Below, in pieces: positions 25,635 to 64,000 of a DNA stretch of 64,000 nucleotides. Both the position numbers and the translations under genes were made by a program. The stretch comes from Candidatus Methanoperedenaceae archaeon GB37 (GTDB lineage: Archaea; Halobacteriota; Methanosarcinia; Methanosarcinales; EX4572-44): NCBI GenBank assembly GCA_905171695.1, contig LR991653.1, positions 1,338,150 to 1,402,149 on the forward strand, in the 5' to 3' direction. The notes under the pieces were generated by a model. That model saw only the letters and a program-made list of their open reading frames with translations, was not told where the DNA came from and did no database searches. The first letter of the stretch is position 1. Each line of letters starts with the position of its first letter.

Positions 25635-25642
25635 GCGGGTGT

Positions 25643-27326: not shown

Positions 27327-27815
27327 ATGCCAGAATGGAAAAATCACGATAAGTGGGCTGAAAAAATGGGGATATCAAAAGAGACTTCAAAGTTTGTCAA
27401 TGGTCTAATTGATTTTCCAAAAAATTGTCAAGAGTTCCAAGATTTTTGTGAGAGAGACCCTAGTGCAAGAATTTTTACCAAAGGTAGACCAACACGCATG
27501 ACTGTAGCATCCCTAATAACCCACGATAGTGGTAGAAGTAACAAATTTTATAGAGAAATACAGCTAAAATTCTTATCACAAAAAGGGAGCGATCATGTAA
27601 AAGCATATTATCTACACCAAGTTTTAGATTATATAGAATGGTGGATTAAAAATTATTCTGAAGAAAATCTAACCGTTGAAAACATTTTACAGGAAAAAAG
27701 GTTGGAAAAGAAAATTGGCGATCCTATAAACGAAGAATTACAGTCAGTGGTGAAATTTGCAATCCAAAATTCAGAGGAAATATTGCAAGATTATAGCAGG
27801 GATGACATAAAATGA
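27327..27815 (+). CDS. Hypothetical protein (AT-rich single-gene cassette)
   Basis: 162-aa ORF, compositionally unlike its flanks and bounded by GTTAAGCG (27266) and the structured repeat at 27885. No family recognised. Confidence 0.5.
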   Translation: MPEWKNHDKWAEKMGISKETSKFVNGLIDFPKNCQEFQDFCERDPSARIFTKGRPTRMTVASLITHDSGRSNKFYREIQLKFLSQKGSDHVKAYYLHQVLDYIEWWIKNYSEENLTVENILQEKRLEKKIGDPINEELQSVVKFAIQNSEEILQDYSRDDIK

Positions 27816-37361: not shown

Positions 37362-38461
37362 ATCTCCGGGTAGATGAATATCATCCCTTCAGGGTACTGA
37401 AGACCCTGCATCTCAAGGTATTCACGGTAGACAGCTTCGGGATCGATCTTGAATTCTGGATGGAATAGTTTTGTCCACTGGACGAGTCCAACGATGCTGT
37501 CAAGCCCGTAGAGTGTCTCGCAGCTTGTGACATAGACGTTCTCCTCGCCTATTATGCTTCTCCATCCAGGGCGATTCATGATCTCGTCTCTGATCTCACT
37601 GGGTTTGGAGGAGTTGTTCCAGCCCCATCTCACGTATCTCTGCTTTATCACTAGATCGGGCTCTTCATCGAGCACCCACTCTGCCTCGACGTGTGGAAAT
37701 GGGGTTGTGAGGTTGTGGGCGATGTTGATCCCTCCTGCAAGGGTGCAGAGTGTATCTGATGCAGAGCCGTTGGCGTATGTTCCGATCTCGCTCAGGTCTT
37801 CCACGCCTTTTGACCCTTCAAGGAAGACTCGTGGTCTCCTCTTCTCCTTCTCAACGAATTCCCTCACGGCTTCTTCGTACCCGGTATACCATTCGATGTA
37901 CTCTTCTGCTCTCTTCTCTTCTTCGAGTAGATATCCAAGCTTCCTGATCTCTTCTTTCAGGTTCTCCTGGTCTGTGAAGTCGAGTCTGAGAACCGGGACA
38001 TCGAATGCTTCGAGATCGAGATCGAGTTCGGCACCTGGCCATCTTACATAGGCGACCACAAGGTCTGGATCGAGTGATGCGATCGTCTCGATATCTGGCT
38101 CGTTCCACTTTCCAACCGATGGTGTGGCATTCAACTCGGGGAAGTAGTATCCCTTCCTTGTTATGATGCCATCGGCAACCCCCACGATCTTCTCGCTGCA
38201 TCCAAGTATCCTGACTGCCTCTGCAGTGTCTGTATTGAGAACGACGATTCGCTTGACCGGGGTGTAGATCGTTATATTTCTTCCAGCAGAGTCCTCGACT
38301 GTGCGGGGATAGTGGTGATGGATCGATGCAGCCTCTCTTGACTCAGAGAGATCCGTAGCTTCAACCGCTTCATCGGTATAGGTTGGCAGGAATATTAAAA
38401 GAACTACTATGAATATAAATAAAATAATACTTATTGATAGGATCTTCCATCCTTTCTTCAT
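37358..38461 (-). CDS. Substrate-binding protein of the FecB/BtuF class (N-terminal membrane anchor)
   Basis: 367 aa with the anchor MKKGWKILSISIILFIFIVVLLIFL and the class III periplasmic-binding pattern (..RIVVLNTDTAEAVRILG...PDLVV..). It is the first gene of the three-gene importer operon. Confidence 0.75.
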   Translation of the reverse strand: MKKGWKILSISIILFIFIVVLLIFLPTYTDEAVEATDLSESREAASIHHHYPRTVEDSAGRNITIYTPVKRIVVLNTDTAEAVRILGCSEKIVGVADGIITRKGYYFPELNATPSVGKWNEPDIETIASLDPDLVVAYVRWPGAELDLDLEAFDVPVLRLDFTDQENLKEEIRKLGYLLEEEKRAEEYIEWYTGYEEAVREFVEKEKRRPRVFLEGSKGVEDLSEIGTYANGSASDTLCTLAGGINIAHNLTTPFPHVEAEWVLDEEPDLVIKQRYVRWGWNNSSKPSEIRDEIMNRPGWRSIIGEENVYVTSCETLYGLDSIVGLVQWTKLFHPEFKIDPEAVYREYLEMQGLQYPEGMIFIYPEI

Positions 38462-49873: not shown

Positions 49874-49981
49874 ATAAAAAAGGGAAGTGGATGAAAGAAA
49901 CAACTCTCTTCCGTGCGGTGGATGTAGATATAGCTAACAAAGTTAAAAGCAATTTAGAATAAGGTGAATAAACCAGCAAGG

Positions 49982-50101
49982 ATGGAGTCAGATGTGATAA
50001 GAGTAAAGATATTGAACAGGGATGAAATTTTAACTGAGGAGGACCTGGAGAATATTTTGGAAGCAATAGACGAGAGAGAAAGGCGATTGCTAAGAGCTTG
50101 A
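49982..50101 (+). CDS. Small putative antitoxin-like ORF (39 aa)
   Basis: MESDVIRVKILNRDEILTEEDLENILEAIDERERRLLRA. It lies 13 nt upstream of the RelE-like pseudogene and is below the ORF-track size cut-off. Confidence 0.3.
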   Translation: MESDVIRVKILNRDEILTEEDLENILEAIDERERRLLRA

Positions 50102-50114
50102 TGAAGTGTTTAAA

Positions 50115-50363
50115 TGAGCTTTAAAGTAGTCTTTTCACATAAGAGCTATAAACAGATAAAATCCTTCAATGAATAACTGAAAAAGAGAATAAAGAAGGAT
50201 GCTATTGAAATCGGCAGTTATCCGTGGCATAGAGGAACTATAAAAGTAAGAGGTTATGAAAAGATGAGAGGGAAGAGGATGGACAATTACAGGATGCTTT
50301 ATACCGCTGATAAGAGGCGAAAAAACGAAACCGCATATATGGTTGAATGCATAGCATCTTAGA
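50115..50363 (+). pseudogene. RelE/ParE-like toxin with an in-frame TAA at codon 21
   Basis: MSFKVVFSHKSYKQIKSFNE-TAA(50175-50177)-LKKRIKKDAIEIGSYPWHRGTIKVRGYEKMRGKRMDNYRMLYTADKRRKNETAYMVECIAS. This follows the RelE pattern (..F.....KQLKKL......RI...I..L...P...G.K.L.G....YR.R.GDYR.iY.id). Confidence 0.55.
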
Positions 50364-51480
50364 CTTAGAACTCCTCATTCTACTTTTTTGCAAGTGTTAT
50401 CGATTTTGTTATCTTTTTGAAGGTTTTAGTAATAGTTTCTTTAAGTTCTTTTATATTCAGTGGTGTTTTCTCTGAAATTGCTCTTTTAGCACTCTTCTAG
50501 ACGTTTTCAATCGGATTTAGATTAGGTGAGTGAGGGGGGGATAAACCAGTGAAATGTTCGGTTTCTCGGCTTCTTTCTTTATCTTCCTGGTATGTTGTGT
50601 TCTGAGGTTGTTCGGGGTGATTACAATTCTCTTTTTTCAGGTTTTGCTTCCCTTATCTTTCTGGGAAAAGAGACGCGGAGTCTTCAGCCTTGCTGCTCTT
50701 GGGAGACTCTATTGAGCTTTCTCTGTTCAAGGTGTAGAATCCTGTAACTTTGGTTTTGATGTATGTAGCAACTCTTTTAACTGGTTTTCCGAAGCTTCAC
50801 AGCCTTGCTCTGTTTGCGTTCGCTTCGACTGCCATCTTATCGATGAATCCTATTTACGTCATCCTCGATTTCAGCGTCGTCAAGGGTTTTTAAAGTGTCT
50901 TCTGCATTATCTGGCTTCCTGTAATCCTTCTGGTACGGTTTGGCGTATCTCATTCCAAACGATTTTAGAATTCTTCTGACCTGCCACGAAGAATAGCTAA
51001 CTCCAAATTCTGCTTCAATGAGCTCTTGAACTTCCTTCGTTGTCCAGGAATCCTTTTTCTTGAGCATTTCTCTGAGTTCTTCCTTCTGCTCTTCTGTAAG
51101 TTTAGAGGGTCTACTTCCTCCATAGTTCGGTTTTAAGCCTTCGTAACCGCTAGAATTCCACCTTTTAAACCATGCATAGCCCGTTGCTTTAGTGACCCCA
51201 ACCAGTTCAGCAACTTCCTCAACACTCATCACTCTGTAGAGATATCTTATAAAGTATAATCTTTTGAGAACTCCTGTATCCTTTTCGAGCCTCTTGATCC
51301 TTTTGTCGAGTTCTTCTGCTGGTATGCGTTTTGCAACTTCGTAGACTCGCTTTCTGCCCACATATTTTGTTGCTTTGTTTTAGTATAAATAGCTCTGCTC
51401 AAGACCATAATTTGAAGTTTCATACAATTAATATATTAATGAATATTAGTGAATCCAACACATTTTATAAATATATTTAA
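50364..51480 (-). mobile_element. Degraded IS630-family element
   Basis: ORF 50837-51361(-) encodes only the N-terminal HTH part of an IS630 transposase (..MSVEEVAELVGVTKATGYAWFKRWNSSGYEGLKPNYGGSRPSKLTEEQKEEL...WTTKEVQELIEAEFGVSYS.WQVRRILKSFGMRYAKP). The region 50364-50836, where the DDE domain should be, has no long ORF. The ends are not defined. Confidence 0.6.
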
Positions 51481-51524
51481 AGTGTTTATGTGTAGACAGA
51501 GCGCTGAGAATGGATGAAAGATGA

Positions 51525-52214
51525 GCCGCTCTGAGCCTCCACTGGCGAGCACGATGCTCAAGGCAGTCTCGCTCGCACGCAGCATTCTGCCTTCAAGAGC
51601 TGAGAGAGACAAGTGTCGATGGAGTCATACTTGTTGACAACCAGTTCCTGAAACAGGCAGGAAAGGACATCAAAACTGCCTACGACAGCATAAACAGGAT
51701 GGTTGCAGATCGCTTCCTCTTCTTGATCCGCGCACTCGACAGTGAGATGATGATGGTAACAGACCTTGGAGACTTCAACACCCTGATGGCAAGCGGAGCC
51801 AGACTCGCGACCTTCGGATTCGCAAAAGGAGGGAAGAATCAGAGCATAAAAGACGTAATCAAAGAGAGCATGTCACCAAGAGGACTCCTCTTCTCAACGC
51901 AACCATACGAAGAAGCAGTGCGAGCAATGATAATCATACAGGGCGACAAAAAATACCTCGATATAAACGAGATCACGAGCGAAGTCGAGACACTCTCGAG
52001 CAATGTGGGACACGTCTTCAAAGGCGTACTCATACGAAACCGAGAAGAACCACAAGTCCTGACCATATTCTCACTATCAGCATCAGAAGAACTCGACAAA
52101 TTCTACCTTGAAGCAATCGAAGCCATCAAAAAAGAGAAAGAACAGAAAGAAAGAACAAAAAGCCAGAAAGAAGTAGCAAACGACCTGCTCAAAGGAATGG
52201 AACCAGAATACTGA
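51525..52214 (+). pseudogene. 5'-truncated tubulin/FtsZ-family (CetZ-like) gene remnant
   Basis: The open frame from 51525 reads ...VDGVILVDNQFLKQAGKDIKTAYDSINRMVADRFLFLIRAL...DLGDFNTLMASGARLATFGFAKGG...PRGLLFST.PYEEAVRAMIIIQGDKKYLDINEITSEVETL... This is the C-terminal half of an FtsZ/CetZ fold. The GTP-binding N-terminal half is absent. Confidence 0.5.
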
Positions 52215-52319
52215 CGAGAACGCCACGGGACACTCCAAGCGAGAACCCGCATAAAAACAAGCGAAAAGAATAAAAAGCATAATGATAATAATCACTAAAC
52301 AAGGTGGGCACAGACAACA

Positions 52320-54209
52320 ATGATAGAAGCAATCAAACAAATCGGGGAATATGCGATAGGGAGAGAAGGGAAGAGTGTTGACGATCCCCTTGACATTCTT
52401 GTGGATAGTCCTGCAAATAGAGATACAAAAAATGTGTTGTTTATTGTTCTTAAATGTGAGGGAGATGGTTTTAGTTATAAAGGTGTGGATGTTGAAGAAT
52501 ATTCAAAATATGATAAAGAAAAATATCTATATAAAAAGGGCAACCCAAGGGGTACGGACATCACACCAACTGCAATGATAACTGATGTGAAAAAAACGTT
52601 TGGAAATAAAATATTGAACTGGTTTAAAAATTATGATGAAATTGGATTGGATGAAAATCAAAATTTCTTGGTCAAAATCGGTAATTGTATTAGAAATAAT
52701 AGTGAACAGATATTAAAGGACCTAGAAGAAAAGCAGAGCAAGGAAAACAATATTATTAGCTTGAGGATCGACAATAAATATCTATATGATTTTAAGATAT
52801 TTCACGATATATTATTAGATAAAGCAAAAGAAAATTTTTATTCAAAATATGGTAAAATATCAAAATCTGAAAATCAGATATGTTCGGTTTGCAATGAAAG
52901 AAAGGCGGAAGTCTATGGTTTTGTGGATACATACAAGTTCTACACCGTCGACAAACGAGGTTTTGTAAGCGGGGGATTTCAGCAGAAGAATGCATGGAAG
53001 AACTATCCTGTGTGTTTAAATTGTGCACTAACACTTGAAGAAGGTAAAAAATATTTGCAGAATAATCTTAAATTTAATTTTTATGGTTTTAATTATCTTT
53101 TAATTCCTAAATTTTTAAATAATGTAGATAAATCAGTACAAGAAGACATTTTCAAAAGAATAGAAGAGCAAAATGACCCAAAATTCAGGAAAAAAGAGAT
53201 AAACAGGCTAACAGCCGATGAAAATGAAATATTAGAATCAATGAGTGAACAAAAGAACTATTTAAATCTGAATTTTATGTTCTACGACGCTCCTAAGGGA
53301 GATAATGGCTCCGTTTTTAACATATTATTATACATTGAAGATATTCTGCCATCGAGGTTGAAGACCTTATTCAACGCAAAAGTAGGTTGTGCAGAGGAGA
53401 ATATAATTGGAGTTGACCAGATTCAGATCTTTCAAGAATGCATGGTGTCTACGTTTGAAAATAAGAAAAAAACTGGAGAAAAGCCACTGGAGTTTAATTT
53501 TGGAATTTTAAGAACGTTTTTCCCAAAAACTAGCAATAATGGAACTTATGATAAGTATTTTTTAGATATCACAAATAAAATTTTCACAAATAAAACAATA
53601 GATTATTATTTCTTATTGAATTTTATTATGGAGAAAATAAGAGATGAGTTTGCCAATGGTTACCCAACTAAGGTTTCAACATTGAAAGGATTCATGTTAT
53701 TAAACTATTTAAATAAATTAAAGTTAGTGAATCTTGGTGAGGAGAGAGAAATGGATGAGAACAGATTAAACATGTTTGAAAAAAGCGTTTCAAAGGAAGT
53801 AACGGATTTAGATCAAAAAATTGATACATTTTTTAATGAGTTTTCAGATTTCTTTAAGAGTGATGCAAAAAAAGCAATATTTCTTGAAGGAGTTTTGACA
53901 CAATTCCTGCTAAATATTCAATATCAGGAACGAAACGCCACCCCTTTTAGAGTGAAGCTGAAAGGGCTGAAGTTAGATGAAAAACAAGTCAAAAAACTTC
54001 TTCCAGAAATACAAAACAAGCTTGAAGAGTATGGAAAGAATTATTATAGAAATTTGGAATCGATTATTTCGAAATATCTCGTATCTGCAGGAGATGAATG
54101 GAATATGAGCAACGATGAAATAAGTTACTATTTTGTGCTTGGAATGAATCTTTCTTATTTATTTAAGAAAGAAAATCAGGATAATGAGATAGGTGATGAA
54201 AATGAGTGA
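52320..54209 (+). CDS. cas8b: Cas8b large subunit (type I-B, TM1802-like)
   Basis: 629 aa with MIEAIKQIGEYAI... and the zinc-ribbon-like CSVCNERKAEVYGF...KNYPVCLNC. It is followed directly by cas7-cas5-cas3. Confidence 0.75.
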   Translation: MIEAIKQIGEYAIGREGKSVDDPLDILVDSPANRDTKNVLFIVLKCEGDGFSYKGVDVEEYSKYDKEKYLYKKGNPRGTDITPTAMITDVKKTFGNKILNWFKNYDEIGLDENQNFLVKIGNCIRNNSEQILKDLEEKQSKENNIISLRIDNKYLYDFKIFHDILLDKAKENFYSKYGKISKSENQICSVCNERKAEVYGFVDTYKFYTVDKRGFVSGGFQQKNAWKNYPVCLNCALTLEEGKKYLQNNLKFNFYGFNYLLIPKFLNNVDKSVQEDIFKRIEEQNDPKFRKKEINRLTADENEILESMSEQKNYLNLNFMFYDAPKGDNGSVFNILLYIEDILPSRLKTLFNAKVGCAEENIIGVDQIQIFQECMVSTFENKKKTGEKPLEFNFGILRTFFPKTSNNGTYDKYFLDITNKIFTNKTIDYYFLLNFIMEKIRDEFANGYPTKVSTLKGFMLLNYLNKLKLVNLGEEREMDENRLNMFEKSVSKEVTDLDQKIDTFFNEFSDFFKSDAKKAIFLEGVLTQFLLNIQYQERNATPFRVKLKGLKLDEKQVKKLLPEIQNKLEEYGKNYYRNLESIISKYLVSAGDEWNMSNDEISYYFVLGMNLSYLFKKENQDNEIGDENE

Positions 54210-55182
54210 GATTATAGGAAACAGGTCAGAGTTGGTATTTCTGTATGATATAAAAGATGCAAATCCAAACGGCGACCCATTGGATGAGAACAAGCCAAGA
54301 ATAGATGAAGAAACTGGGATAAATGTCGTAACAGACGTTCGACTGAAAAGGACAATACGAGATTATCTCATGAATTTTAAAAATCAGGAGATATTTGTTA
54401 GAGAGATAACAGATGATGAAGGCAATATCCAAGACGCCAAACTAAGAGCAAAAGATTTTTTAAATGGTGTATCTGACTTGGAGAGTAAGGGCTTTAATGA
54501 GCAAAAAGAGATAATCAAAAACAAAATAATCAGTACCTGTATTGATGTGCGTCTATTCGGAGCTACAATACCTCTTGATTTGACAATAAAAGACGGGAAG
54601 AAGTTAAAAAGTGTTACAGGGTCCATCACTCTCACAGGTCCTGTTCAATTCAGAATGGGCAGGTCATTGCACAGAGTTGAGATGAAGCATATTAAAGGTA
54701 CTGGTGCCTTTGCATCGAAAGCAGGAGCAACTCAAAAAACCTTCAGAGAAGAAGACATATTACCGTATTCATTAATTTGTTTCTACGGCATCATTAACGA
54801 AAATGCAGCAAAACACACAGGATTAACAGAAGAAGATGTCAAACTACTTTTAGAAGGAATGTGGAACGGCACTAAAAATCTGATTTCACGAAGCAAAGCG
54901 GGTCAAATGTCGAGATTGCTTTTGAAAGTGAACTATAGAGAGAACGGATATCACATAGGTGATCTTGACAAACTCATCAGGATAAAAGATATTGAAAAAA
55001 TAAATCAGGAGAGTATACGTGATATTTCTGAAATTGAACTGGATGCAAGCGAACTTGTTGAAACATTGAATCGTAATAGAGATAAAATTGAAAGTGTTGG
55101 GATAAAAAGGGATGATAGAGTGAAGATCGATTTAAGTTGGTTGGACAGCACTATTCGACAAAACGAGATAATCTTTGAATAG
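54196..55182 (+). CDS. cas7: Cas7 (type I-B, Csh2/CT1132-like)
   Basis: LVFLYDIKDANPNGDPLDENKPRIDEETGINVVTDVRLKRTIRDYL is the canonical Cas7 N-terminal block. The start overlaps the cas8b stop (alternatives are 54193 GTG and 54202 ATG). Confidence 0.9.
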   Translation: MKMSEIIGNRSELVFLYDIKDANPNGDPLDENKPRIDEETGINVVTDVRLKRTIRDYLMNFKNQEIFVREITDDEGNIQDAKLRAKDFLNGVSDLESKGFNEQKEIIKNKIISTCIDVRLFGATIPLDLTIKDGKKLKSVTGSITLTGPVQFRMGRSLHRVEMKHIKGTGAFASKAGATQKTFREEDILPYSLICFYGIINENAAKHTGLTEEDVKLLLEGMWNGTKNLISRSKAGQMSRLLLKVNYRENGYHIGDLDKLIRIKDIEKINQESIRDISEIELDASELVETLNRNRDKIESVGIKRDDRVKIDLSWLDSTIRQNEIIFE

Positions 55183-55185
55183 AAT

Positions 55186-55950
55186 ATGAATCCAGAGCAA
55201 AGGATAGACAAATTGTTAGTATTTGATGTGTGGGGAGACTATGCTCATTTTAGACGATTCTATACTACTACGTCTCCGCTCACTTTTACTGTCCCTCCAC
55301 GAACTGCATTATGTGGCTTAATTGGTGCAATGATTGGATTGGAAAAAGAGAACAATGAGTATCTAAAATATTTCACTACGGACAAGGCATACATCGGTTT
55401 AAAGCTGCTAACTCCAGTAAAAAAAGTAATTATTGCTGAAAATTTGATACACACAAAGAATGCAAAGGGCATTGGGATGAACTTGATAACTGAAAGAACT
55501 CAGATAAATTTTGAGTTCTTGAAAGACCCAAGATATAGAGTTTATTTTTACCACGCGGATAAAGAGATATATCAACAGCTGAGAGAAAACTTAGAAGCTC
55601 ATAAATCTGTATACACGCCGTGTCTTGGTTTAAGTGAGAACATAGCGAACTTTGTGTTTGTTGGTGAAGTTGAAGCTAAAACTAACTCAAGTATCGATGA
55701 ATATGTTCAAATTGATTCCGTATTGCCGTCTGAAAAAATTGTTTGCGAGAAGGGTATCAATTTTAATTTAGATGGAGAATTTTTTTCAATGAAAGTTCCA
55801 ATAGAGTTGAATTTAGAAAGGGTTGTTACAAAGTATAGTGATCTTTTGTTTGAGAGAAATGGCAAACGGATTGAAGTTAAATTAGCAGAACCTTATTGGA
55901 CTATAGATTATGGAACTGGAACACAGGAAAATATCGTCTTCATCGAATGA
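55186..55950 (+). CDS. cas5: Cas5 (type I-B)
   Basis: LVFDVWGDYAHFRRFYTTTSPLTFTVPPRTALCGLIGAMIGL is the canonical Cas5 N-terminal block. Confidence 0.9.
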   Translation: MNPEQRIDKLLVFDVWGDYAHFRRFYTTTSPLTFTVPPRTALCGLIGAMIGLEKENNEYLKYFTTDKAYIGLKLLTPVKKVIIAENLIHTKNAKGIGMNLITERTQINFEFLKDPRYRVYFYHADKEIYQQLRENLEAHKSVYTPCLGLSENIANFVFVGEVEAKTNSSIDEYVQIDSVLPSEKIVCEKGINFNLDGEFFSMKVPIELNLERVVTKYSDLLFERNGKRIEVKLAEPYWTIDYGTGTQENIVFIE

Positions 55951-58378
55951 GCTTAAATCGCATCCAGATAAGCATTTAATGGAACACTTATCAAATGTGG
56001 GAGCACTGTGTAAAGAGATCATATCATCGAAAAAGTTGAGCATGGATGAATATGTGGATTTTGACGTGCTCCAAGATGTGGCTTATCTGGTTGGAATAAG
56101 TCATGACTTCGGTAAAGCAACGTCTTTTTTTCAGAAATATATTAATGAAACAGATGAATTGAAAAGGATTAAACTAAAAAATAAACCAGAAACGTATCAT
56201 GGATTTCTTTCATCCCTTTTTACGTATTATGTTATAAAAGAGTATCTTTCCTCTAAAAACTTACAGGAGAGGAGATATTTAAAATATCTTCCTATAATAT
56301 GCTTTTTGATTGTTAAACGGCACCATGGGAATTTACATGATGCATTGGATGAAACCAGTGATTTTGGCGAGGCTGATAAAGCGATTTTAGAAAAACAAGT
56401 TGAGTCCATTGATTTTAATAAAATAAACGATATTTATAATGTGTTGTTCTTAAAGGTGCAGTTTAATTTTGATTGTAACTTCTTTCGAGATAAAATTTTG
56501 AATTCAAAACCGATCTATGTTTATGGGAAGCTTAAAGGACATAAGAAACATTACATGCATGATGTTGGAGGTGAGGGGAGGAGGTTGGTTAGGAATATAG
56601 ATGAAGAGCGCAGTTTGTTTTATTATTTTATAGCTTTGTTTTTGTATTCAGTACTTTTAGATGCTGACAAAACAGACGCTGCGAATTTAAAGCCAGTTAG
56701 AAGAAAAGATGTATCCAATGATATAGTTGATAATTATAAAAAATCCAGATTTAAAGAAAATGAGAGTAAGATGAACAGAATGAGAGAGGAGATCTATGAG
56801 GAAGTTATGAGCAACCTTAAAAATATTAATTTAGATAGAGATAAGATTTTATCGCTGAATGTTCCAACTGGTACTGGAAAAACACTTACCTCTCTGTCTT
56901 TTGCTTTAAAAATAAGGAAACGAATCGAGTATGAGAAGGGATATTCGCCACGGATTATTTACTCACTTCCTTTTTTGAGCATTATTGATCAAAATTATGA
57001 TGTTTTCAATGAGGTTTTAGGAAATCCAACCACAGATATACTTTTAAAACATCACCATTTATCAGACGTGCTTTATACAACAGAAGAAGACGAATTTGAT
57101 AGTATAGATAGCGATGTTGGAAAGGACGTTCTTTTAATCGAGGGATGGAATTCAGAGATTATTGTTACAACTTTTATACAATTTTTTCATTCGCTAATAT
57201 CAAATAAAAACAGGTCGATAAGAAAGATTTATAACATCGTAAACAGCATTGTTATATTAGACGAAGTTCAAGCTATTCCACACAAATACTGGTTGTTGTT
57301 AAATAAAACAATTAATTTTCTTGCAAATCATTTTAACACATATTTTATTTTTATTACAGCCACGCAGCCTTTGATTTTTAACGAAAAGAAAAATGAAATA
57401 AAAGAATTAGTAAAGAACAAGGAAAAATATTTTAGAGAACTTGATAGAGTTAAATTACATGTGGTTTTAGAGCCTATTTTAATTGAAAGCTTCAAAGAGG
57501 TCTTAAAAAAAGATTTAATAGAGAATGAAAACAAAGATTTTTTAATTGTTTTGAATACTATTAACTCGTCAAAAGACGTTTATGAGTTTGTTAAGGAGTT
57601 GAATATTAAAGATTCCAAAATATATTATTTATCTACAAATATTGTTCCAAAGAGTAGATTAAAAAGAATTAAAGAGATAAAGAAAGAAACGAAAGAGAGA
57701 AAAATCATAGTAAGTACCCAGCTTATAGAAGCGGGTGTAGATATGGATGTCGATATTGTTTATAGAGACTTTGCACCCCTTGATTCCATAAATCAGGTTG
57801 CAGGTAGATGTAACAGAAACTTTAGAGATACAAAAGGTATTGTTAAAATTTTTGTTTTAAAAGAAGAAAATAGAGAATATTACAAACATATCTATGGAAC
57901 ATTTTTACCCTCTAAAACAGAAAATGTCCTCAAAGACAAAAACAAAATAAACGAATCTGAATTTTTAAAAATAAATGAAAAATACTTTGAAAAAATAGAT
58001 ATTGAAAAAAGTGACGATGAATCAATGAGTATTTTAGAAACACTTGAAAAATTGAAATTTGAAGATTTATCCAAATTTAAATTAATAAAAGAGGATTATT
58101 TCAAGGTTGACGTGTTCATTGAACTTGATGATTATGCAAAATCTGTGTGGAGAAAATATTGTGAAATAAAAGAGCTTCCACCGTTTGAGCGCAGGAAGGA
58201 GTTTTTGAAGATTAAAAAGGATTTTTATGATTATGTGATTTCTGTTCCAAAAAATTATGCGGCTGGTTTTGAAGAGGGAGAAATAAATCACGTTTCAAAA
58301 GAGGAATTATCTAATTACTATGATGCTGAAACCGGTTTCAAACGAGAGACTGCAGGAGAGGGGGTGCTGATCTGTTAG
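55910..58378 (+). CDS. cas3: Cas3 (HD nuclease fused to SF2 helicase)
   Basis: 822 aa with HD motif GISHDFGKATSFFQ, helicase motif I LNVPTGTGKT, motif II VILDEVQ, and later STQLIEAGVDMD. The only in-frame ATG preceding the conserved SHPDKHLMEHL is at 55910 (41-nt overlap with cas5). Confidence 0.9.
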   Translation: MELEHRKISSSSNELKSHPDKHLMEHLSNVGALCKEIISSKKLSMDEYVDFDVLQDVAYLVGISHDFGKATSFFQKYINETDELKRIKLKNKPETYHGFLSSLFTYYVIKEYLSSKNLQERRYLKYLPIICFLIVKRHHGNLHDALDETSDFGEADKAILEKQVESIDFNKINDIYNVLFLKVQFNFDCNFFRDKILNSKPIYVYGKLKGHKKHYMHDVGGEGRRLVRNIDEERSLFYYFIALFLYSVLLDADKTDAANLKPVRRKDVSNDIVDNYKKSRFKENESKMNRMREEIYEEVMSNLKNINLDRDKILSLNVPTGTGKTLTSLSFALKIRKRIEYEKGYSPRIIYSLPFLSIIDQNYDVFNEVLGNPTTDILLKHHHLSDVLYTTEEDEFDSIDSDVGKDVLLIEGWNSEIIVTTFIQFFHSLISNKNRSIRKIYNIVNSIVILDEVQAIPHKYWLLLNKTINFLANHFNTYFIFITATQPLIFNEKKNEIKELVKNKEKYFRELDRVKLHVVLEPILIESFKEVLKKDLIENENKDFLIVLNTINSSKDVYEFVKELNIKDSKIYYLSTNIVPKSRLKRIKEIKKETKERKIIVSTQLIEAGVDMDVDIVYRDFAPLDSINQVAGRCNRNFRDTKGIVKIFVLKEENREYYKHIYGTFLPSKTENVLKDKNKINESEFLKINEKYFEKIDIEKSDDESMSILETLEKLKFEDLSKFKLIKEDYFKVDVFIELDDYAKSVWRKYCEIKELPPFERRKEFLKIKKDFYDYVISVPKNYAAGFEEGEINHVSKEELSNYYDAETGFKRETAGEGVLIC

Positions 58379-58548
58379 GAAGACACCGTCTCGCTCACAA
58401 TCCTATGAAATCAGTTTGAATGAGGAACAGTATACAAGAATACTGGAGAAGAGAGAAGTTATGGACGAAGTAGGAACGATCGTATTCGGACTCGATTGCG
58501 TGAGTGCGTCTTACGTCTTCGGCTATCAATCTCCAAAGGACTGAAACC

Positions 58549-59214
58549 ATGCCCCTTGAAACTCTCACTCTGACCCTCACATCCTCCCGCCCGGTCAGAG
58601 AGACAGGGGTTCAGCTCCGCGGCTTCTTTGCAACCAAGTTCACAGAGTATGAGCTCCTGCACCAGCACGTGGATGCGGGCAGACTCGTCTACCAGTACCC
58701 GAAGATCCAGTACAAGGTGATCGATGGCACTCCGATGGTGATCGGGATAAACGAGGGTGCAGAGGTATTAAAGGAGCTATACGACCAGTACGATAGAATA
58801 ACGCTTGGAGATAATACCTACGAGATTGTTGAGAGAAATATAACTCTGCGAGAGGAAGCTTTTGGTATCTCGCATCAGATTTTGAGTTATCGATTTATTA
58901 CGCCGTGGCTTGCACTGAATCAGAGGAATTATGAACGGTATTTTAGATTGGATTGGTCTAAGCAGAAGAATTTGCTGCGCAGAACGCTTGTTGGTAATAT
59001 ACTTTCGATGGCAAAGGGGCTGGATTATGTCGTGACCTCACATATAAAACTGGATATTGGTAGAGTGCGGCATAGGATGTGCACTGTTAAGGGTGTGAAC
59101 ATGCTTGGAATTGAATGCGATTTTATGGTGAACTTTGCAATTCCTGACTATCTCGGGCTTGGTAAGTCGGTATCGAGGGGGTTTGGGGCGGTTGTGAAGG
59201 TGAAGAATCTTTGA
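58549..59214 (+). CDS. cas6: Cas6 crRNA endoribonuclease
   Basis: From the internal Met: MPLETLTLTLTSSRPVRETGVQLRGFFATKF...YPKIQYKVIDG... and the C-terminal glycine-rich loop GLGKSVSRGFGAV. Its composition is noticeably more GC-rich than the flanking cas genes. Confidence 0.8.
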   Translation: MPLETLTLTLTSSRPVRETGVQLRGFFATKFTEYELLHQHVDAGRLVYQYPKIQYKVIDGTPMVIGINEGAEVLKELYDQYDRITLGDNTYEIVERNITLREEAFGISHQILSYRFITPWLALNQRNYERYFRLDWSKQKNLLRRTLVGNILSMAKGLDYVVTSHIKLDIGRVRHRMCTVKGVNMLGIECDFMVNFAIPDYLGLGKSVSRGFGAVVKVKNL

Positions 59215-59290
59215 AAGGGTTCTGGATGTGGAAAGGATTAATAAAGACGGAGAAGATAGTTAAATATTGCTTTACTGTTGGTGAAAAAAT

Positions 59291-61324
59291 ATGAGCGATG
59301 ATCTGGTTCCAGAGCTGCATGATATAGGGAAGATGGTTGATGAGTCGTTGATGAACGAAGACGGGCACACTTTTCGTCGTATAGACGATCGCTACAAGAA
59401 TAGAATAAAAGATAATAAAAATTGGGTTGGTATAAAATTTCATACAGGCGGAAAGACTCCAAATGAATACAAAGGAGACATGGATCTCTTTTTGCTTAAG
59501 TTATCGGATCACATGGCATCTGCCGTGTCGAGAATGCTACCTAAAAAAGAGGCGAATCAAGCCAAGGATCAAGCCAAAACACAAAACAAAACACAAAGAA
59601 GTGATAAAAAGCGGAGAAAATCGAGTATCTGCAAATTATGGTGGGAAAATGAAGCCGAGACGGAATTGATCTCGGATGATAAGGAATTCTTAGAATTAAT
59701 TGATTTTGTAAATAATTACTCGTCTAACGACGGTACTAAATATTTTGAAAAATACGGTAAAAGATTAAAAGAATGTCCAGAAGATAAATTTCCGGGATTA
59801 AATATCATATCTCTCTTTACACATTCAAAACTTGTTGGCAAGTTTTATAGATTCTTCAAGAAGTACGGGGACGATATCAAGGATAATGGAACAACTCTCG
59901 GAGAGGTATATGAAATAAAGAAAGCAGAGAATAATTTTACAATAAAACTCGTTCACGGAAAAATTAAATTTCATTTATCGCCTGTTCGAGCAGGAGATTT
60001 GAATATCTTCAATGTTAAAGAACGAATTGTAGAGTTTTTAAAGCAAAGAGATGAGATTTTGTTTTGCACTCAAGATGAATTTCTGGCAATTCTTCCAGTG
60101 AATAAAGATATAACGAGTATTTTTGAAAAAATAGAAGAAAACCTATACTTTGATGTAGAAGAGGCAGAAGCGGTGTTATATGAGGTATATCCCACTCCAC
60201 TGGCGATGAAAAGCAGATTTGAAAGAACAAATTCAAAAGGATTTAGGGTTCGTGAAAAATTTAACTATGCTGAAAAGTTGATATATTTCGATTTATCTCC
60301 GCAGATACATGATATCTGCGACCTCTGCCAGATGTATGAGGCAACAAAGGAATTTCCAAGAGATTATGTTTACGAGCATCTTTGTGAGAAATGTAGAACT
60401 GCTGTGAGAAATGAAGAATACCCGTTTCCTTTAGATAAAATCTGTGAGAGTTGCAAGAACAAAAACGAAAAATGGTTAGAGGAGACTATTTCTGAAAAAT
60501 TATGCATACACTGCTTTAATTTAAGAGAAGAAGAGCCTCGTGCACCAAAAATTGTAGAATGGTCTGAATCAGATGAAGATTTTAAGGTTGCGTGGGTCAA
60601 AATAAGTCTGGACATCGAAGAACTCCAGAAAATTTTGGAAAAACTGTATGAAGAATATCTAAATCTAAATGAAAAAGAGTTTGAAAAGAGCAGGGAAGGA
60701 GAGATAAGATTTTCTGTTCTTTCTGAGTTCCAGAGTGATTTTGAGAATTTCCTGGGAGATTTGATGAGAAAGAGAGAAGATGATGGGGAGATAGAGGGGT
60801 TGCTTGCAGATAAATTTGGAATTGCAAATTGTCAGTGGATTCTGTCAGATCTTTTCTGCGTCAGGATAGAGAGTCTGGCTGACATAACAGAAATTTTGGA
60901 AATCTACAACAAGCTCTTCAATGGATATTTCCCAAAGTTCAAAAAGGTAGCTTCGCCAATAAAACTCTCAATCTCCTACTCCAGCATAAAGTTCGCATTC
61001 TTCTGGCACTGGAGGTTTCTGGATAACCCAGTGAATGATGTCAATGTAAATCTCGTGGGCAAAGGCGAGATGCATCTGGATCTGGAACAGTTAGATAATA
61101 TCCTTGAATTGAATGAAATCTCTGTAGCTCAACTTCATAAGTTGGCAAAGATATCAGAAGTATCTAAAGAACTATCAAAGATCTTACTGTATCATAAAGG
61201 CGAGTGGAGGTTAGTCAAAAAAGAAGATTATGAAAAACTGAAGAAATTTACCTCAGCAGTTGGTTTTGAGAATATCTTGACCTATGCAAAGATGATACGC
61301 GATCAGGAGCAGTTGGTTGAATGA
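59291..61324 (+). CDS. cas10: Short Cas10-like large subunit (HD domain, four CxxC pairs, no GGDD)
   Basis: 677 aa with HD motif PELHDIGK at residues 7-14 and the Cys cluster CDLCQ..CEKC..CESC..CIHC. The palm-like segments read ILFCTQDEFLAILP and WILSDLFCVRIE, followed about 45 aa later by KLSISYSSIKF (the usual position of the SxGI block). Confidence 0.65.
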   Translation: MSDDLVPELHDIGKMVDESLMNEDGHTFRRIDDRYKNRIKDNKNWVGIKFHTGGKTPNEYKGDMDLFLLKLSDHMASAVSRMLPKKEANQAKDQAKTQNKTQRSDKKRRKSSICKLWWENEAETELISDDKEFLELIDFVNNYSSNDGTKYFEKYGKRLKECPEDKFPGLNIISLFTHSKLVGKFYRFFKKYGDDIKDNGTTLGEVYEIKKAENNFTIKLVHGKIKFHLSPVRAGDLNIFNVKERIVEFLKQRDEILFCTQDEFLAILPVNKDITSIFEKIEENLYFDVEEAEAVLYEVYPTPLAMKSRFERTNSKGFRVREKFNYAEKLIYFDLSPQIHDICDLCQMYEATKEFPRDYVYEHLCEKCRTAVRNEEYPFPLDKICESCKNKNEKWLEETISEKLCIHCFNLREEEPRAPKIVEWSESDEDFKVAWVKISLDIEELQKILEKLYEEYLNLNEKEFEKSREGEIRFSVLSEFQSDFENFLGDLMRKREDDGEIEGLLADKFGIANCQWILSDLFCVRIESLADITEILEIYNKLFNGYFPKFKKVASPIKLSISYSSIKFAFFWHWRFLDNPVNDVNVNLVGKGEMHLDLEQLDNILELNEISVAQLHKLAKISEVSKELSKILLYHKGEWRLVKKEDYEKLKKFTSAVGFENILTYAKMIRDQEQLVE

Positions 61325-62052
61325 ATTTTATTGAATACACGCTCACATCGGATATGCTCTGTATGGGCGAACGGATAAAGAAGGGGCAGTTCAGACCGAC
61401 AGTCACAACAATCCCTTATAGCCAGATTACTGGCGCCTTAAAGGCGGTTTTTGGAGATAAGGATATTCACGCCGTTGGTTACTTTCCTTTTGAGAATGAG
61501 CAGGAGTTTAGAAGAAGGCATGTGCAAATATTAACGTATTCACCGAGGGACAGGGCAATCAACACGAGCATCATTCCACTGTATATTGAATACCTGAGGG
61601 ATGTTAAAGGGAGGGTGTTTATCGCAGCGACAGATGATATCAGAGACGCCCTTAAAAATGAGTCAATTTCCATTTATATGGATATGGGTGCTTTCAAATC
61701 TAAAGGGTTCGGGGGGTGTACATTGAAAAAGTGCAGAGAGATAGGTGAAGAAGATTTGGAGATTCGAGAAGGGTTATTGAATACCAGAATTCCAATAGCA
61801 AAGGCAAAAGAGATGAATGGAATGGATGGCAAGTCTCAAAAGAGGTTGATAGACGAAGGGGGGACGACTGAATTCCTGAAAAATACATTCGGTATCGAAA
61901 AGGTTGTAAAGGCACGATATGGTTACCTCTTTGAGCCGACGAGTAAAACATCCGGGTGGTACGTGCTATCACTCTTTGAGGGAAGCGTGATAAAAGGACC
62001 GGAATTTCTGTTGAAGGATTATGATAGAGGTGATGGGAATGATACTCAATAA
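61321..62052 (+). CDS. Cas5-group RAMP (Csm4/Cmr3-like)
   Basis: 243 aa with ...TTIPYSQITGALKAVFG... and the glycine-rich GAFKSKGFGG. It overlaps the cas10-like gene by 4 nt. Confidence 0.55.
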   Translation: MNFIEYTLTSDMLCMGERIKKGQFRPTVTTIPYSQITGALKAVFGDKDIHAVGYFPFENEQEFRRRHVQILTYSPRDRAINTSIIPLYIEYLRDVKGRVFIAATDDIRDALKNESISIYMDMGAFKSKGFGGCTLKKCREIGEEDLEIREGLLNTRIPIAKAKEMNGMDGKSQKRLIDEGGTTEFLKNTFGIEKVVKARYGYLFEPTSKTSGWYVLSLFEGSVIKGPEFLLKDYDRGDGNDTQ

Positions 62053-62638
62053 CGTCGATGAATTTGTTAAGGAAATATTGAATGACCGGAGGATATTTTT
62101 TTATTCTCATGGAGCGGAACTATTTAACAAAGCGGAAATGGATAATCTGAAGAAAAAATATGAAAATAATAAGGCAGATTTTATCAAAAAGATCAAAGAT
62201 AAAATTGAGCAAGTTAATGAGGAGATAGAACATCTGAAAAAGCAAAAAAATAACAGACTGAAGAAAAGAATAGAGAATAGACAAAGATGTGTAAAACTTG
62301 CAGAATCGATGATTCGGGCGGTCACAGATACGTCAAATTCTTTAGAAGAACTAATAGAAACGTTCGATGACCTGGGGATATTATCAAGTAATCTAGCGCC
62401 AAAACATTTAGAAGATATTGGCCAATTGATAGAAGAGACCGAGAGAAATATCGTGAAAGAATTTATTTTGTATAAAGCTCAAAAAGAGGGAGATAAACGT
62501 AAAAGGGAGGCACTAATGGTTTTGTGGAATTATGTAGATCAACTATATGGAATGAATTTATCCCTACCTGAAAAGGGATTTGTAATAAGAAAAATAAATG
62601 CATTTAAGTTACTCCCTGAGGTGATAAACCATGAATAA
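62021..62638 (+). CDS. Putative small subunit (Cas11-like), helical K/E-rich protein
   Basis: Assigned by position between the Cas5-like and Cas7-like genes, by size (about 200 aa) and by helical/coiled-coil character only. The start may be 62033 or 62039. Confidence 0.35.
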   Translation: MIEVMGMILNNVDEFVKEILNDRRIFFYSHGAELFNKAEMDNLKKKYENNKADFIKKIKDKIEQVNEEIEHLKKQKNNRLKKRIENRQRCVKLAESMIRAVTDTSNSLEELIETFDDLGILSSNLAPKHLEDIGQLIEETERNIVKEFILYKAQKEGDKRKREALMVLWNYVDQLYGMNLSLPEKGFVIRKINAFKLLPEVINHE

Positions 62639-63488
62639 GTTTGAAACTCTTGCAGATATTGGAACAACCGAACAGATCGGCAGAATTAAGAGGCTTAATG
62701 TGGGCATAGTTGTGAAGGTTGAAGATGCGTCTTTCTTGCACATTGGGGGAAGTCCTACGCCATTGACAGATAAGAAAGCACCAATATTCATGATTGGTGA
62801 CCAGCCAGCGATCCCCGCATCGAGTTTCAAAGGGGCATTCCGAAATAAAGTAGAAGCCTACTTAATAGAACACCAAGACGAGATTAAAACGATTTTCAGA
62901 GTGGAAGATGCAAAGTGTTTGATGCCATGCATTCCCGCATCAAAACCCACCGCCGCAGAAAAATCTTTCTTGACCAACAAAGCTGTTTACAGAGAGAAAA
63001 ACTGCGAAGTGAAAGTGGACGAAAATACGATCAAATTCCCAAATAGTGGGATATGCCCAGTCTGTTATTTATTTGGTGCCAATGGCATAATGGGTTTCCT
63101 GCGAATACCCAACTTTCTACCAATAACGAAAGGGCTTAGCAAATTGGAACAAACTCAGATAGGAATTGACAGGAAAACAGGAACTGCTCGCCACGGAGCA
63201 ATTGTTCGCGGAGATCAGGTTTTACCGGGAACAAAATTCGTTGGTAAACTTGAAATTCTATTGAATGATGGTAATTTTGAATTTGGTGTACCGAGAAAGA
63301 TAGGCGAGAATAATAAACAAGTATTGGATACGTGGCTAAACAACACTGAAATAGAAGATCTTAATGAAATCCAGATTAAGATTATCGATAACTTGATACT
63401 AAGACCATTAAAAGAGTTGGATCGTCTTGGTGGTCAGAAATCCAAAGGTGCGGGGAAAGTAAAAATAACAGTCGGAGCGCCTCCATGA
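62631..63488 (+). CDS. Cas7-group RAMP (Csm3/Cmr4-like), the single backbone subunit of the minimal type III module
   Basis: 285 aa with LHIGGSPTP...QPAIPASSFKGAFRNKVEAYL, CPVCYLFGANG, IGIDRKTGTARHGAIVRGDQVLPGTKF and the C-terminal LGGQKSKGAGKV. Confidence 0.75.
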   Translation: MNKFETLADIGTTEQIGRIKRLNVGIVVKVEDASFLHIGGSPTPLTDKKAPIFMIGDQPAIPASSFKGAFRNKVEAYLIEHQDEIKTIFRVEDAKCLMPCIPASKPTAAEKSFLTNKAVYREKNCEVKVDENTIKFPNSGICPVCYLFGANGIMGFLRIPNFLPITKGLSKLEQTQIGIDRKTGTARHGAIVRGDQVLPGTKFVGKLEILLNDGNFEFGVPRKIGENNKQVLDTWLNNTEIEDLNEIQIKIIDNLILRPLKELDRLGGQKSKGAGKVKITVGAPP

Positions 63489-63586
63489 AACTTCGCGTCC
63501 AATCTTCAAAGTAAGATTTGTGTGTGGGGTGTTAGTGACAGCGTGGTGATAACCGATAATAAAATCCATAAAATACTCCAAAACTT

Positions 63587-64000
63587 ATGCATATGCAACT
63601 CGTAATCAACACCCGCGGATCATACCTGAGAAAGAAAGAGAACCGCTTTCTTGTCAGGAACGAGGAGAAGGTCTTTGAGATATCGGTGAATAAGGTTGAT
63701 AGCATACTGATTACGACATCTGCGTACATCTCGACCGACGCAGTCAAGTTCGCTGTAGATAACAACATCGATATAGTCTTCCTTGACAACTTTGGTGATC
63801 CTTTCGGCAGAGTCTGGCACAGTAAACTCGGTAGCACGACTCTTATCAGAAGGCGTCAGCTTGAGACCTCCAGCACGGCAAGAGGGTTTAACATGGCGAA
63901 GGGATGGGTGGAGATAAAGATCGATAATCAGATCACCTTTCTGAAGGACCTCAAGAAGAACCGTCCAGAGAGGAGGGGAGAGATCGAGTCTCACATCAGA
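63587..64000 (+). CDS. cas1: Cas1 integrase, N-terminal part (runs off the window end)
   Basis: Not in the ORF track (open at the edge). My own translation gives MHMQLVINTRGSYLRKKENRFLVRNEEKVFEISVNKVDSILITTSAYISTDAVKFAVDNNIDIVFLDNFGDPFGRVWHSKLGSTTLIRRRQLE..., the canonical Cas1 N-terminal domain. Confidence 0.85.
   Translation, partial: MHMQLVINTRGSYLRKKENRFLVRNEEKVFEISVNKVDSILITTSAYISTDAVKFAVDNNIDIVFLDNFGDPFGRVWHSKLGSTTLIRRRQLETSSTARGFNMAKGWVEIKIDNQITFLKDLKKNRPERRGEIESHIR

Follow-up and report, generated by a model that had tools for sequence, protein, structure and literature searches.

Which part of a composite CRISPR-Cas operon is resident, and which part has been inserted? The question is raised by the end of the window, a 64-kb stretch of DNA in which type I-B effector genes, cas6, a small type III module and cas1 follow one another. 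A preliminary description had read both effector modules as foreign, AT-rich grafts on a resident cas6...cas1 scaffold. The window's Cas8b is 100% identical to a protein of Ca. Methanoperedenaceae archaeon GB37, and the public genome of Ca. Methanoperedenaceae archaeon GB50 (locus L001 among the comparison loci) is 98.4% identical to the window over a shared 14.7 kb. The host is an ethane-oxidising archaeon. The features of the locus are as follows.

51699..52214, +, ORF of 171 aa directly upstream of cas8b and co-oriented with it
52320..54209, +, cas8b (TM1802/Csh1 family), large subunit of the I-B Cascade; TIGR02556, 298.9 bits against a cutoff of 157
54193..55182, +, cas7 (Csh2), I-B backbone subunit; TIGR02590, 304 bits against a cutoff of 172
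55186..55950, +, cas5 (Cas5h/Cas5b); TIGR02592, 156 bits against a cutoff of 97
55910..58378, +, cas3 (HD nuclease and helicase); matches TIGR01587 (cas3_core) and TIGR01596 (cas3_HD)
58549..59214, +, cas6b; Pfam Cas6b_N and Cas6b_C, PADLOC Cas6b E 2.5e-76
59215..59290, +, spacer between cas6b and cas10f with a conserved AT-rich motif, GGATTAATAAAGA (about 59234-59247)
59291..61324, +, cas10f, the III-F Cas10; PADLOC Cas10a/Cas10f profile E 3.5e-103
61321..62052, +, cas5 of III-F (Csm4-like); PADLOC Cas5_IIIf E 1.2e-52
62021..62638, +, cas11 of III-F, the long variant of about 200 aa; PADLOC Cas11f E 1.1e-22 over the full length
62631..63488, +, the single cas7 of III-F (Csm3-like, clade A); PADLOC Cas7_IIIf E 1.9e-68 and Pfam RAMPs
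63587..64000, +, first 414 nt of cas1, cut by the window end; PADLOC Cas1b E 7e-54

ORFs and profile matches bear out the order and strand described earlier, cas8b-cas7-cas5-cas3, cas6b, cas10-cas5-cas11-cas7 and cas1, all on the plus strand, with the type III module nested between cas6 and cas1. By these matches, the type I-B signature set (Cas8b, Cas7, Cas5 and Cas3 with its HD and helicase parts) is complete in the window, and the cas8b product also matches Pfam PF09484 (E 8e-170). The only gene at the locus for a crRNA-processing endonuclease is cas6b. Its ORF reaches upstream to a GTG at 58504; we placed the start at 58549, the start of the 221-aa gene call in GB50, and so amend the probable start given before. 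No Pfam, NCBIfam or PADLOC profile matched the 171-aa ORF; GB50 has it (L001, L024), the related loci L025 and L028 do not have it upstream, and whether it belongs to the CRISPR system is uncertain.

The window ends inside cas1, and cas2, cas4 and the array are known from the GB50 relative. There, a search past cas1 (14296-15270), as the preliminary description had proposed, finds cas2 (15278-15568), cas4 (15580-16176) and, from 16312, one array of at least 77 repeats. The presumption of one cas6, one adaptation module and one array downstream thus holds, the array being that of the near-identical GB50 chromosome, and a single gene cluster carries two interference modules of different types together with these parts. 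The GB50 repeat is 37 nt long (GTTGCAGAGCAACATCCACTAAAACAAGGATTGAAAC) and ends in ATTGAAAC, the Cas6b tag found experimentally on I-B Cas6b crRNAs of M. maripaludis and C. thermocellum (PMC3479195). The domains and the GB50 repeat thus show the pairing typical of type I-B, Cas6b with a repeat predicted to be cleaved to give an 8-nt AUUGAAAC tag.

The naming of the second effector as a minimal type III module stands, and it can now be made more precise: the module is subtype III-F, a known but rare four-gene effector cassette. Beyond this name and the cas6b start, the description of the sequence needed no correction. All four of its proteins match III-F-specific PADLOC profiles, and there is no second RAMP gene between cas10f and cas1. 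The AlphaFold2 model of Cas10f (pLDDT 85.7) has only Csm1/Cas10 structures among its top 40 Foldseek matches in the PDB, with E values down to 6e-11. In a profile of 38 homologues, its LHDIGK motif (residues 9-14) aligns with the HD domain of S. thermophilus Csm1, and H10, D11, H26, H51 and D73 are invariant, as are the Zn-finger cysteines; the protein has four CxxC pairs. No GGDD, GGDE or GGD occurs anywhere in it. In published III-F systems, the Cas10 HD domain is generally present, and cyclase motifs and effectors are always absent (PMC11229360).

A separate III-C island lies at 17438-24660, with a Cas10c match (E 3e-223) and matches to Cmr1, Cmr6, Cmr4 and Cmr3. Within it, the stretch 23407-23731 is not covered by any of these five assignments. 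Its Cas10c has the HD motif LHDMGK and no GGDD, so that both Cas10 proteins carry an N-terminal LHD[IM]GK and neither has GGDD or GGDE at any position. The motif scan thereby agrees with the earlier statement that neither Cas10 has a cyclase motif, and the count of three effector modules in 64 kb (I-B, III-F and III-C) is likewise upheld.

Given these features, one could ask whether the III-F cassette is a decaying passenger without function. In addition to the missing cyclase motif, no CARF or SAVED effector was found among ORFs of at least 150 aa when the 64 kb were scanned with Pfam and PADLOC; a lysine (K49) in Cas7f occupies the position of the catalytic aspartate of Csm3 and III-D Cas7; and we found no paper characterising a III-F system experimentally in the literature searched. 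Decay is nevertheless very improbable, since none of the four ORFs is broken in the window, GB50 or relatives, neither the HD residues nor the Zn-finger cysteines vary among the 38 homologues, and overlaps of 4, 32 and 8 nt between the genes are typical of a co-translated operon. Purifying selection acts on all genes of the locus, none of which is disrupted: dN/dS is 0.01-0.25 overall and 0.13-0.25 for the III-F genes. Given the lysine in Cas7f, RNA cleavage may not proceed as in the usual type III cycle. Upstream of cas10f, the motif GGATTAATAAAGA is kept in the window, L025 and L028, despite 60-75% protein identity of the flanking genes, and it is possibly an archaeal promoter of the cassette.

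Base composition does alternate along the operon, as had been noted. Per-gene GC3 is 0.29, 0.34, 0.31 and 0.28 for cas8b, cas7, cas5 and cas3, 0.54-0.55 for cas6b, 0.37, 0.46, 0.32 and 0.38 for cas10f, cas5f, cas11f and cas7f, and 0.64 for cas1; housekeeping genes of the window (TBP, TatD, aaRS, CobN, ABC transporter) range from 0.51 to 0.61. The differences amount to 5-7 binomial standard errors (137-820 codons per gene), and a uniform composition does not describe the locus. Relatives whose modules stand in another order, however, show the same contrast gene by gene, at dS from about 1 to saturation, and so does L034, an ANME-1 locus that lacks III-F. Because it is reproduced at such distances and without III-F, the contrast is not a mark of recent arrival. 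AT-rich effector genes beside host-like cas6b and adaptation genes are found in both mid- and high-GC hosts of this locus family. On these comparisons, the patchy composition is an old, conserved property of gene classes rather than the sign of a recent graft.

What, then, has been inserted? An Atribacteria contig (L035) carries cas8b-cas7-cas5-cas3-cas6b-cas1-cas2-cas4 without interruption and without III-F, its cas6b lying 12 nt from cas1; identity to the window's proteins is 59-74%, with Cas6b (41%) as the exception. L034 likewise lacks III-F, although L028, which has it, encodes a Cas1 93% identical and a Cas6b 86% identical to those of L034. Cas1 proteins of the window type share 61-93% identity among I-B loci, whether or not these carry III-F. 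Divergence tells the same story: identity rankings of the I-B effector genes, of cas6b and of cas1-cas2-cas4 all give ((L001,L025),L028,L033) over these four loci, and dS between L001 and L025 is similar (0.9-1.4) for the I-B effector genes, cas6b, cas1 and cas4. The uninterrupted L035, the L028/L034 pair, the congruent divergence and the recurring GC3 contrast together indicate that, in these comparisons, only III-F behaves as an insert in a I-B operon. Against this, no insertion scars flank the cassette.

These results bear directly on the proposal that I-B and type III effector modules of foreign origin were grafted separately onto a resident, host-like cas6...cas1 scaffold. Congruent phylogenies had been named as its refutation, and the identity rankings of the I-B effector genes, cas6b and the adaptation genes are congruent over the four loci. 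Also against it stand the uninterrupted I-B operon in L035, the similar dS, and a compositional contrast that persists at saturated dS and under other module orders, which a recent graft would not predict. The GC3 contrast is real, to be sure, and the I-B effector cassette has traveled widely: Cas8b-Cas7-Cas5-Cas3 is 60-70% identical across archaeal and bacterial phyla, with examples in ANME-1, Methanolliviera, Atribacteria, Actinobacteria and Desulfuromonadales. In L036, this cassette (62-77% identity) is accompanied by an unrelated cas6 and by a cas4-cas1-cas2 set of only 22-26% identity, so that effector and adaptation modules evidently shuffle at some depth. The I-B cassette is thus highly mobile in its own right, and some older exchange of its genes is conceivable; we consider the two grafts themselves unlikely.

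The relationship could also be reversed, with III-F and its own cas6b, adaptation genes and array as the core (cas6b-III-F-cas1-2-4-array) and the I-B effector cassette added later. Adjacency lends this some appeal. cas6b adjoins III-F in L002, L003, L025, L028, L031 and L032 (L033, with two copies, is the exception), L030 has a cas6 not of the Cas6b type beside III-F, and in L025 the block cas6b-III-F-cas1-2-4 is unbroken and followed by the I-B effector genes. L031 is even a locus free of type I genes, in which III-F is accompanied by cas6b, cas1, cas2 and 17 repeats built on the same core (CCACTAAAACAAGGATTGAAAC). Yet Cas1 of the window shares only 30% identity with the L031 protein, against 66-69% with Cas1 of L034 and L035, which are I-B loci free of III-F, and the window's Cas6b belongs to a lineage encoded after cas3 (with L033a and L034), not with the copies after cas7f (L003, L031, L033b). 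We regard a III-F core as improbable, more so than the two grafts. The after-cas3 lineage of Cas6b also occurs in I-B loci free of III-F.

Incongruence does exist, inside III-F. The cas11-cas7 pair has been swapped, as has the N-terminal half of Cas10: the window's pair falls in a "long Cas11" clade common to Bacteroidota and uncultured bacteria, and L028, a near relative, carries the other cas11-cas7 clade. The window cassette is thus chimeric. The insertion point also varies among I-B operons: in L006 the III-F cassette separates cas1 from cas2, and in L009 and L011 it separates cas5b from cas3b. One can envision, tentatively and as a single joint proposal, that III-F is not a free-standing type but a small mobile "guest" cassette that dwells at varied insertion points in Cas6b-containing, mostly I-B, operons, relies on their Cas6b, spacers and array, and evolves by exchanging sub-parts, namely cas11-cas7 and the HD/first-palm half of Cas10, and that in this locus family the effector genes hold a synonymous composition AT-shifted against cas6 and the adaptation genes, through saturating divergence and across hosts. 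If the latter were true, it would imply either selection on composition, for example to control expression or to evade chromatin silencing, or else that effector DNA flows in permanently from low-GC donors.

Our preferred reading, which we consider likely, is that of a I-B operon, cas8b-cas7-cas5-cas3-cas6b-cas1-cas2-cas4-array, with a III-F cassette inserted between cas6b and cas1, working as follows. The array downstream of cas4 would be transcribed and cut by Cas6b within the 37-nt repeat, leaving the 8-nt 5′ tag AUUGAAAC, and both effectors would be loaded with the same crRNAs; we infer this sharing of Cas6b, adaptation genes and array from gene content. III-F can use this repeat family, as L031 with its repeats of the same core shows, which supports the sharing indirectly. 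The I-B Cascade (Cas8b, Cas7, Cas5) would locate PAM-flanked DNA and bring in Cas3. The III-F complex, made up of Cas10f, Cas5f, Cas11f and several Cas7f subunits, would bind complementary transcripts, and target RNA would turn on DNA cleavage by the Cas10f HD nuclease, as predicted for the subtype. Without a cyclase motif, and with no CARF-type effector found among the larger ORFs scanned, the complex is expected to emit no cyclic-oligoadenylate signal. We imagine that Cas1-Cas2-Cas4 supply spacers to both effectors, whereby III-F could back up I-B against PAM or seed escape mutants.

In its parts, then, the locus is an ordinary type I-B operon with a known III-F cassette inside. It shares Cas8b, Csh2, Cas5h, Cas3, Cas6b and Cas1-Cas2-Cas4, as well as the 37-nt repeat ending in ATTGAAAC (in the GB50 relative), with the TM1802/Csh1 (Hmari-like) I-B systems of M. 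maripaludis and C. thermocellum, but differs from them in having cas6b after cas3, the order cas1-cas2-cas4 and an interrupting type III cassette. Type III backs up type I in Marinomonas mediterranea, and crRNAs are shared in Pyrococcus furiosus. The CRISPRCasTyper preprint cites Bernheim et al. 2020 for the description of hybrid CRISPR-Cas loci. As in hybrid type I/III loci, interference modules of two types occur here together with a single adaptation cassette, a single cas6 and a single array; the type III partner, however, is the signaling-free III-F, nested within the type I operon instead of alongside it, and the sharing is predicted from the genes. Published III-F systems (PMC3973734, PMC8036902, PMC11229360) likewise consist of cas10, cas5, a small-subunit gene and only one cas7, with an HD domain and no cyclase motif in Cas10 and no signaling effector; in the window, none was found among ORFs of at least 150 aa. 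Most III-F loci lack arrays (PMC12669027); unlike them, the window's cassette is embedded in a complete I-B operon, to which cas6b, cas1-2-4 and, as seen in GB50, a long array belong.

As judged from comparison with its relatives, the CRISPR-Cas operon of the window is probably a coherent set of type I-B effector genes, cas6b and adaptation genes to which a type III-F cassette was added. The preliminary description was correct in gene order, composition and Cas10 motifs; its evolutionary reading holds in part only, in that a graft of two effector modules is not supported and III-F alone appears to be an add-on. Every gene from 52320 to the window end lies on the plus strand, as had been claimed. 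Profile searches identified cas8b (TM1802/Csh1), cas7 (Csh2), cas5 (Cas5h) and cas3 (HD plus helicase), with three signature profiles of the I-B genes exceeding the NCBI curated cutoffs, and both Cas6b domains were found in cas6b. The four genes after cas6b gave no useful Pfam or NCBIfam match, save for a RAMP domain in the fourth, and were assigned with PADLOC to the kind of module now named subtype III-F (PMC8036902).

Genes of the III-F cassette and cas1 in the window
cas10f, plus strand: PADLOC Cas10a/Cas10f, E 3.5e-103
cas5f, plus strand: PADLOC Cas5_IIIf, E 1.2e-52
cas11f, plus strand: PADLOC Cas11f, E 1.1e-22
cas7f, plus strand: PADLOC Cas7_IIIf, E 1.9e-68
cas1, plus strand: start at 63587, cut by the window end

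Genes overlap or abut inside each module, and the gaps between modules measure 125-170, 76 and 98 nt. Two AT-rich motifs kept in related loci, GGATTAATAAAGA upstream of cas10f (59234-59247) and GATAATAAAATCCATAAAATACTCC upstream of cas1 (63540-63580), are candidate internal archaeal promoters, in which case the III-F and adaptation genes may form separate transcription units. Scanning the internal gaps with a regular expression for archaeal TATA boxes yielded nothing informative, and an Rfam scan of 49000-64000 at E values up to 1 gave no match. ORF171, upstream of cas8b, matched no family in Pfam, NCBIfam or PADLOC.

The alternating base composition, from which two foreign AT-rich effector modules on a resident cas6...cas1 scaffold had been proposed, was confirmed quantitatively, since the GC3 values of the window's genes differ accordingly, low in effector genes and host-like in cas6b and cas1.

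GC3 of genes in the window
I-B effector genes: 0.28-0.34
cas6b: 0.54
III-F genes: 0.32-0.46
cas1: 0.64
Housekeeping genes (TBP, TatD, GHMP kinase, aaRS, Mrp/ParA, CobN, ABC transporter): 0.51-0.61

This contrast was followed through the window, L001 (the near-identical locus on the GB50 chromosome), L025, L028 and L033 (related loci with III-F), L031 (a stand-alone III-F locus), L034 and L035 (I-B loci without III-F, from ANME-1 and Atribacteria), and two further comparison loci, L030 and L036. The per-gene pattern is unchanged across L025/L026 and L027/L028 despite permuted module order, and it persists at dS ~1 (L001 versus L025) and at saturation (L001 versus L028). In L034, which has no III-F, effector genes stand at 0.28-0.33, cas6b at 0.50 and cas1-2-4 at 0.48-0.63; in L031 (host 0.57-0.67), III-F stands at 0.37-0.44, cas6b at 0.57 and cas1-2 at 0.50-0.53; in L030 (host ~0.83), effector genes stand at 0.61-0.70 and cas6 with cas1-2-4 at 0.77-0.86. 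All genes of L035, in a low-GC host (0.22-0.29), are uniformly low, and the III-C genes of the window lie at 0.34-0.48. Cas6 and adaptation genes track the host, and effector genes (type I, III-F and III-C) are AT-shifted in all hosts of mid or high GC that were examined. GC mosaics in cas operons should therefore be treated with caution as evidence of recent grafting, given that in these comparative data the mosaic follows the gene classes and is conserved with them. Elsewhere in the window, the ORFs at 12300-14259 and 27327-27815 are AT-rich too and deviate from host composition.

Gene relationships point the same way. The gene set of the window recurs with its modules permuted in L025/L026 (cas6b-III-F-cas1-2-4-cas8b-7-5-3) and L027/L028 (cas1-2-4-cas8b-7-5-3-cas6b-III-F-array). 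Identities rank as ((L001,L025),L028,L033) for cas5b, cas3, cas6b, cas5f, cas1 and cas4; cas8b and cas7b, missing from L033, agree over L001, L025 and L028, and cas2 likewise groups L001 with L025. Thus, I-B effector genes, cas6b and adaptation genes share one identity grouping, contrary to the proposed graft of two modules onto cas6...cas1. The two loci without III-F, found via Cas8b, are in keeping with this. L035 reads cas8b-7-5-3-cas6b-cas1-2-4 with no insert, its proteins being 59-74% identical to those of the window (Cas6b 41%), and L034 shares 93% identity in Cas1 and 86% in Cas6b with the III-F-bearing L028; identity between window-type Cas1 and that of L031 is only 30%. Taken together, the L034, L035 and L031 comparisons argue for a single coherent I-B operon type with III-F as the addition. 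Direct or inverted repeats sought as insertion scars flanking the III-F cassette amounted only to 7-nt chance matches. In L033, cas6b is present twice (3245-3913 and 15234-15887), following cas3 in one case and the III-F cassette in the other. The two copies come from different Cas6b lineages and share 41% identity, which suggests that I-B and III-F once each possessed a Cas6b, of which the window retains only the I-B-type copy.

What incongruence there is appears to sit within III-F and not between the I-B modules. Between L001 and L025, dS is 0.25 for cas11f and 0.13 for cas7f and ~1 for all other genes, and the L028 products are 26% (Cas11f) and 35% (Cas7f) identical to those of L001, because L028 carries the other clade of both subunits; its Cas11 is a short form of ~100 aa. 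The window Cas7f shares 57% identity with one from Bacteroidota. The cas11f-cas7f pair (62021-63488) thus has a history unlike that of cas10f-cas5f. The clades differ at the presumed active site as well. We mapped the catalytic column of Cas7f by alignment to III-D Cas7 and to the catalytic Asp, D32, of Staphylococcus epidermidis Csm3. Lys49 of the window protein (residues 45-52, LTDKKAPI) falls in this column of Csm3/III-D Cas7, which holds K in 65/73 proteins of the window's clade A and D or E in 40/52 of clade B. An acidic residue two positions earlier is mostly kept (D47 in the window, E in most). One can envision that target RNA cleavage by Cas7f may have been lost or that the catalytic residue may have shifted.

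In a profile of 38 homologues, the N terminus of Cas10f aligns to the HD domain of Streptococcus thermophilus Csm1, with H10, D11, H26, H51, D73 and two CxxC pairs invariant; its AlphaFold model (pLDDT 85.7) has full-length structural matches to Csm1/Cas10 only. As had been noted, neither Cas10 of the window has a cyclase motif: GGDD is absent from Cas10f, which also lacks GGDE, and from Cas10c of the III-C island (17438-24660), which has LHDMGK. With 327 clusters at 50% identity in a set of 1.84 billion representatives, the Cas10f family is small. Residues ~18-340 of Cas10f, the HD/first-palm half (59341-60312), are swapped between the two GB50 assemblies: this segment is 34-40% identical in L001 versus L024 (the second assembly), and the rest of the locus is 99-100% identical. 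The breakpoints lie at the conserved stretches LVPELHDIGK and HxICDLCQMYEATKEFP, and the alternative segment is nearest to that of L033 (61-69% identity). Either genuine strain variation or a chimeric MAG assembly could account for the swap.

GB37 and GB50 are Guaymas Basin enrichments of the ethane-oxidizing 'Ca. Ethanoperedens'. The Cas8b of the window matches that of strain GB37 at 100% identity. Over 14.7 kb, the window tail matches the GB50 chromosome (LR991654.1) at 98.4% identity, and there the array expected downstream of cas1 is seen, after cas2 and cas4. In this array GTTGCAGAGCAACATCCACTAAAACAAGGATTGAAAC is repeated at least 77 times, with spacers of 34-39 nt; the 64-kb window contains neither this repeat nor any array. 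The final eight bases of the repeat, AUUGAAAC, equal the experimentally determined 5′ tag of Cas6b-processed I-B crRNAs (PMC3479195). Spacers of GB50, L024 and L027/L028 compared with the window and all loci retrieved revealed no self-targets, only 17-18-nt matches that are chance or repeat derived. Three leader-proximal spacers, searched as exact 26-27-mers, found no protospacers in IMG/VR, which left no basis for deriving a PAM or strand bias. Across 49290-64000, nucleotide divergence from L001 stays at 0-0.2% as far as 51699, then climbs to 0.4-1.5% over the I-B genes and 2-4.8% over III-F; cas1 differs by 3.7% and the spacer between cas7f and cas1 by 10%. Between GB37 and GB50, the CRISPR locus changes or recombines faster than its flank.

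Several other features of the window deserve mention. The interval 31871-38461, first suspected to be the III-C island, encodes CobN and an ABC transporter instead. Perfect tandem repeats occur at 24454-24549 (4 x 24 bp; by coordinates in frame in III-C cmr3, encoding GGKIPHPI x4) and at 5774-5833 (4 x 15 bp, GGAAGTAATATAACG). Directly after the III-C genes, 24969-27223 holds a 221-aa ORF with no family match and a HerA-type ATPase (E 2.5e-51), possibly an accessory pair of the NurA/HerA kind. The interval 41855-49873 is one ORF of 2672 aa that carries repeated CARDB domains (Pfam, on the identical GB50 gene) and ends ~2.4 kb upstream of the CRISPR operon. Transposase-related genes or fragments (HTH_23/29/32/33, DDE_Tnp_1, DDE_Tnp_IS240) are dispersed in the window, including 7007-7729 (minus strand), 11120-11641 and 50837-51361 (minus strand), one of them being a short way upstream of the CRISPR operon.

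The operon genes are under purifying selection (dN/dS 0.01-0.25). The mechanism proposed is based on this, on gene content, on the presence of one cas6b, one adaptation cassette and one array, and on the repeat family shared with L031. III-F is among the least studied CRISPR subtypes, and no experimental study of it was found in the literature searched. Here, the cassette has a complete natural setting in cultivable ethane-oxidizing enrichments, with Cas6b, adaptation genes, a long array and a I-B partner. It thus lends itself to asking whether an HD-only, signaling-free type III complex can function with borrowed crRNAs, whether such a complex cleaves RNA at all and whether it backs up type I immunity.

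III-F is found in varied company. It lies between cas1 and cas2-cas4 in L006 (a Chloroflexota I-B locus), between cas5b and cas3b in L009 and L011, and after cas3 in L005; it adjoins a III-B module in L032 and has its own cas6b, cas1-2 and array in L031. Most III-F loci are said to be without arrays (PMC12669027). In L029 (Rosettibacter firmus, GCA_036860695.1; 4020-13418), a complete III-F sits inside a type III restriction-modification operon. Methyltransferase genes (N6_N4_Mtase, MTase_III) lie on one side of it and the gene of a type III restriction enzyme on the other; an NTP_transf_2/HEPN pair is adjacent, and neither an array nor any cas6, cas1 or type I gene occurs within 10 kb. Hybrid loci, in which two interference modules accompany a single adaptation cassette, form a recognized class (CRISPRCasTyper preprint), and the window region adds one more example to a known kind and is almost identical to public genomes.
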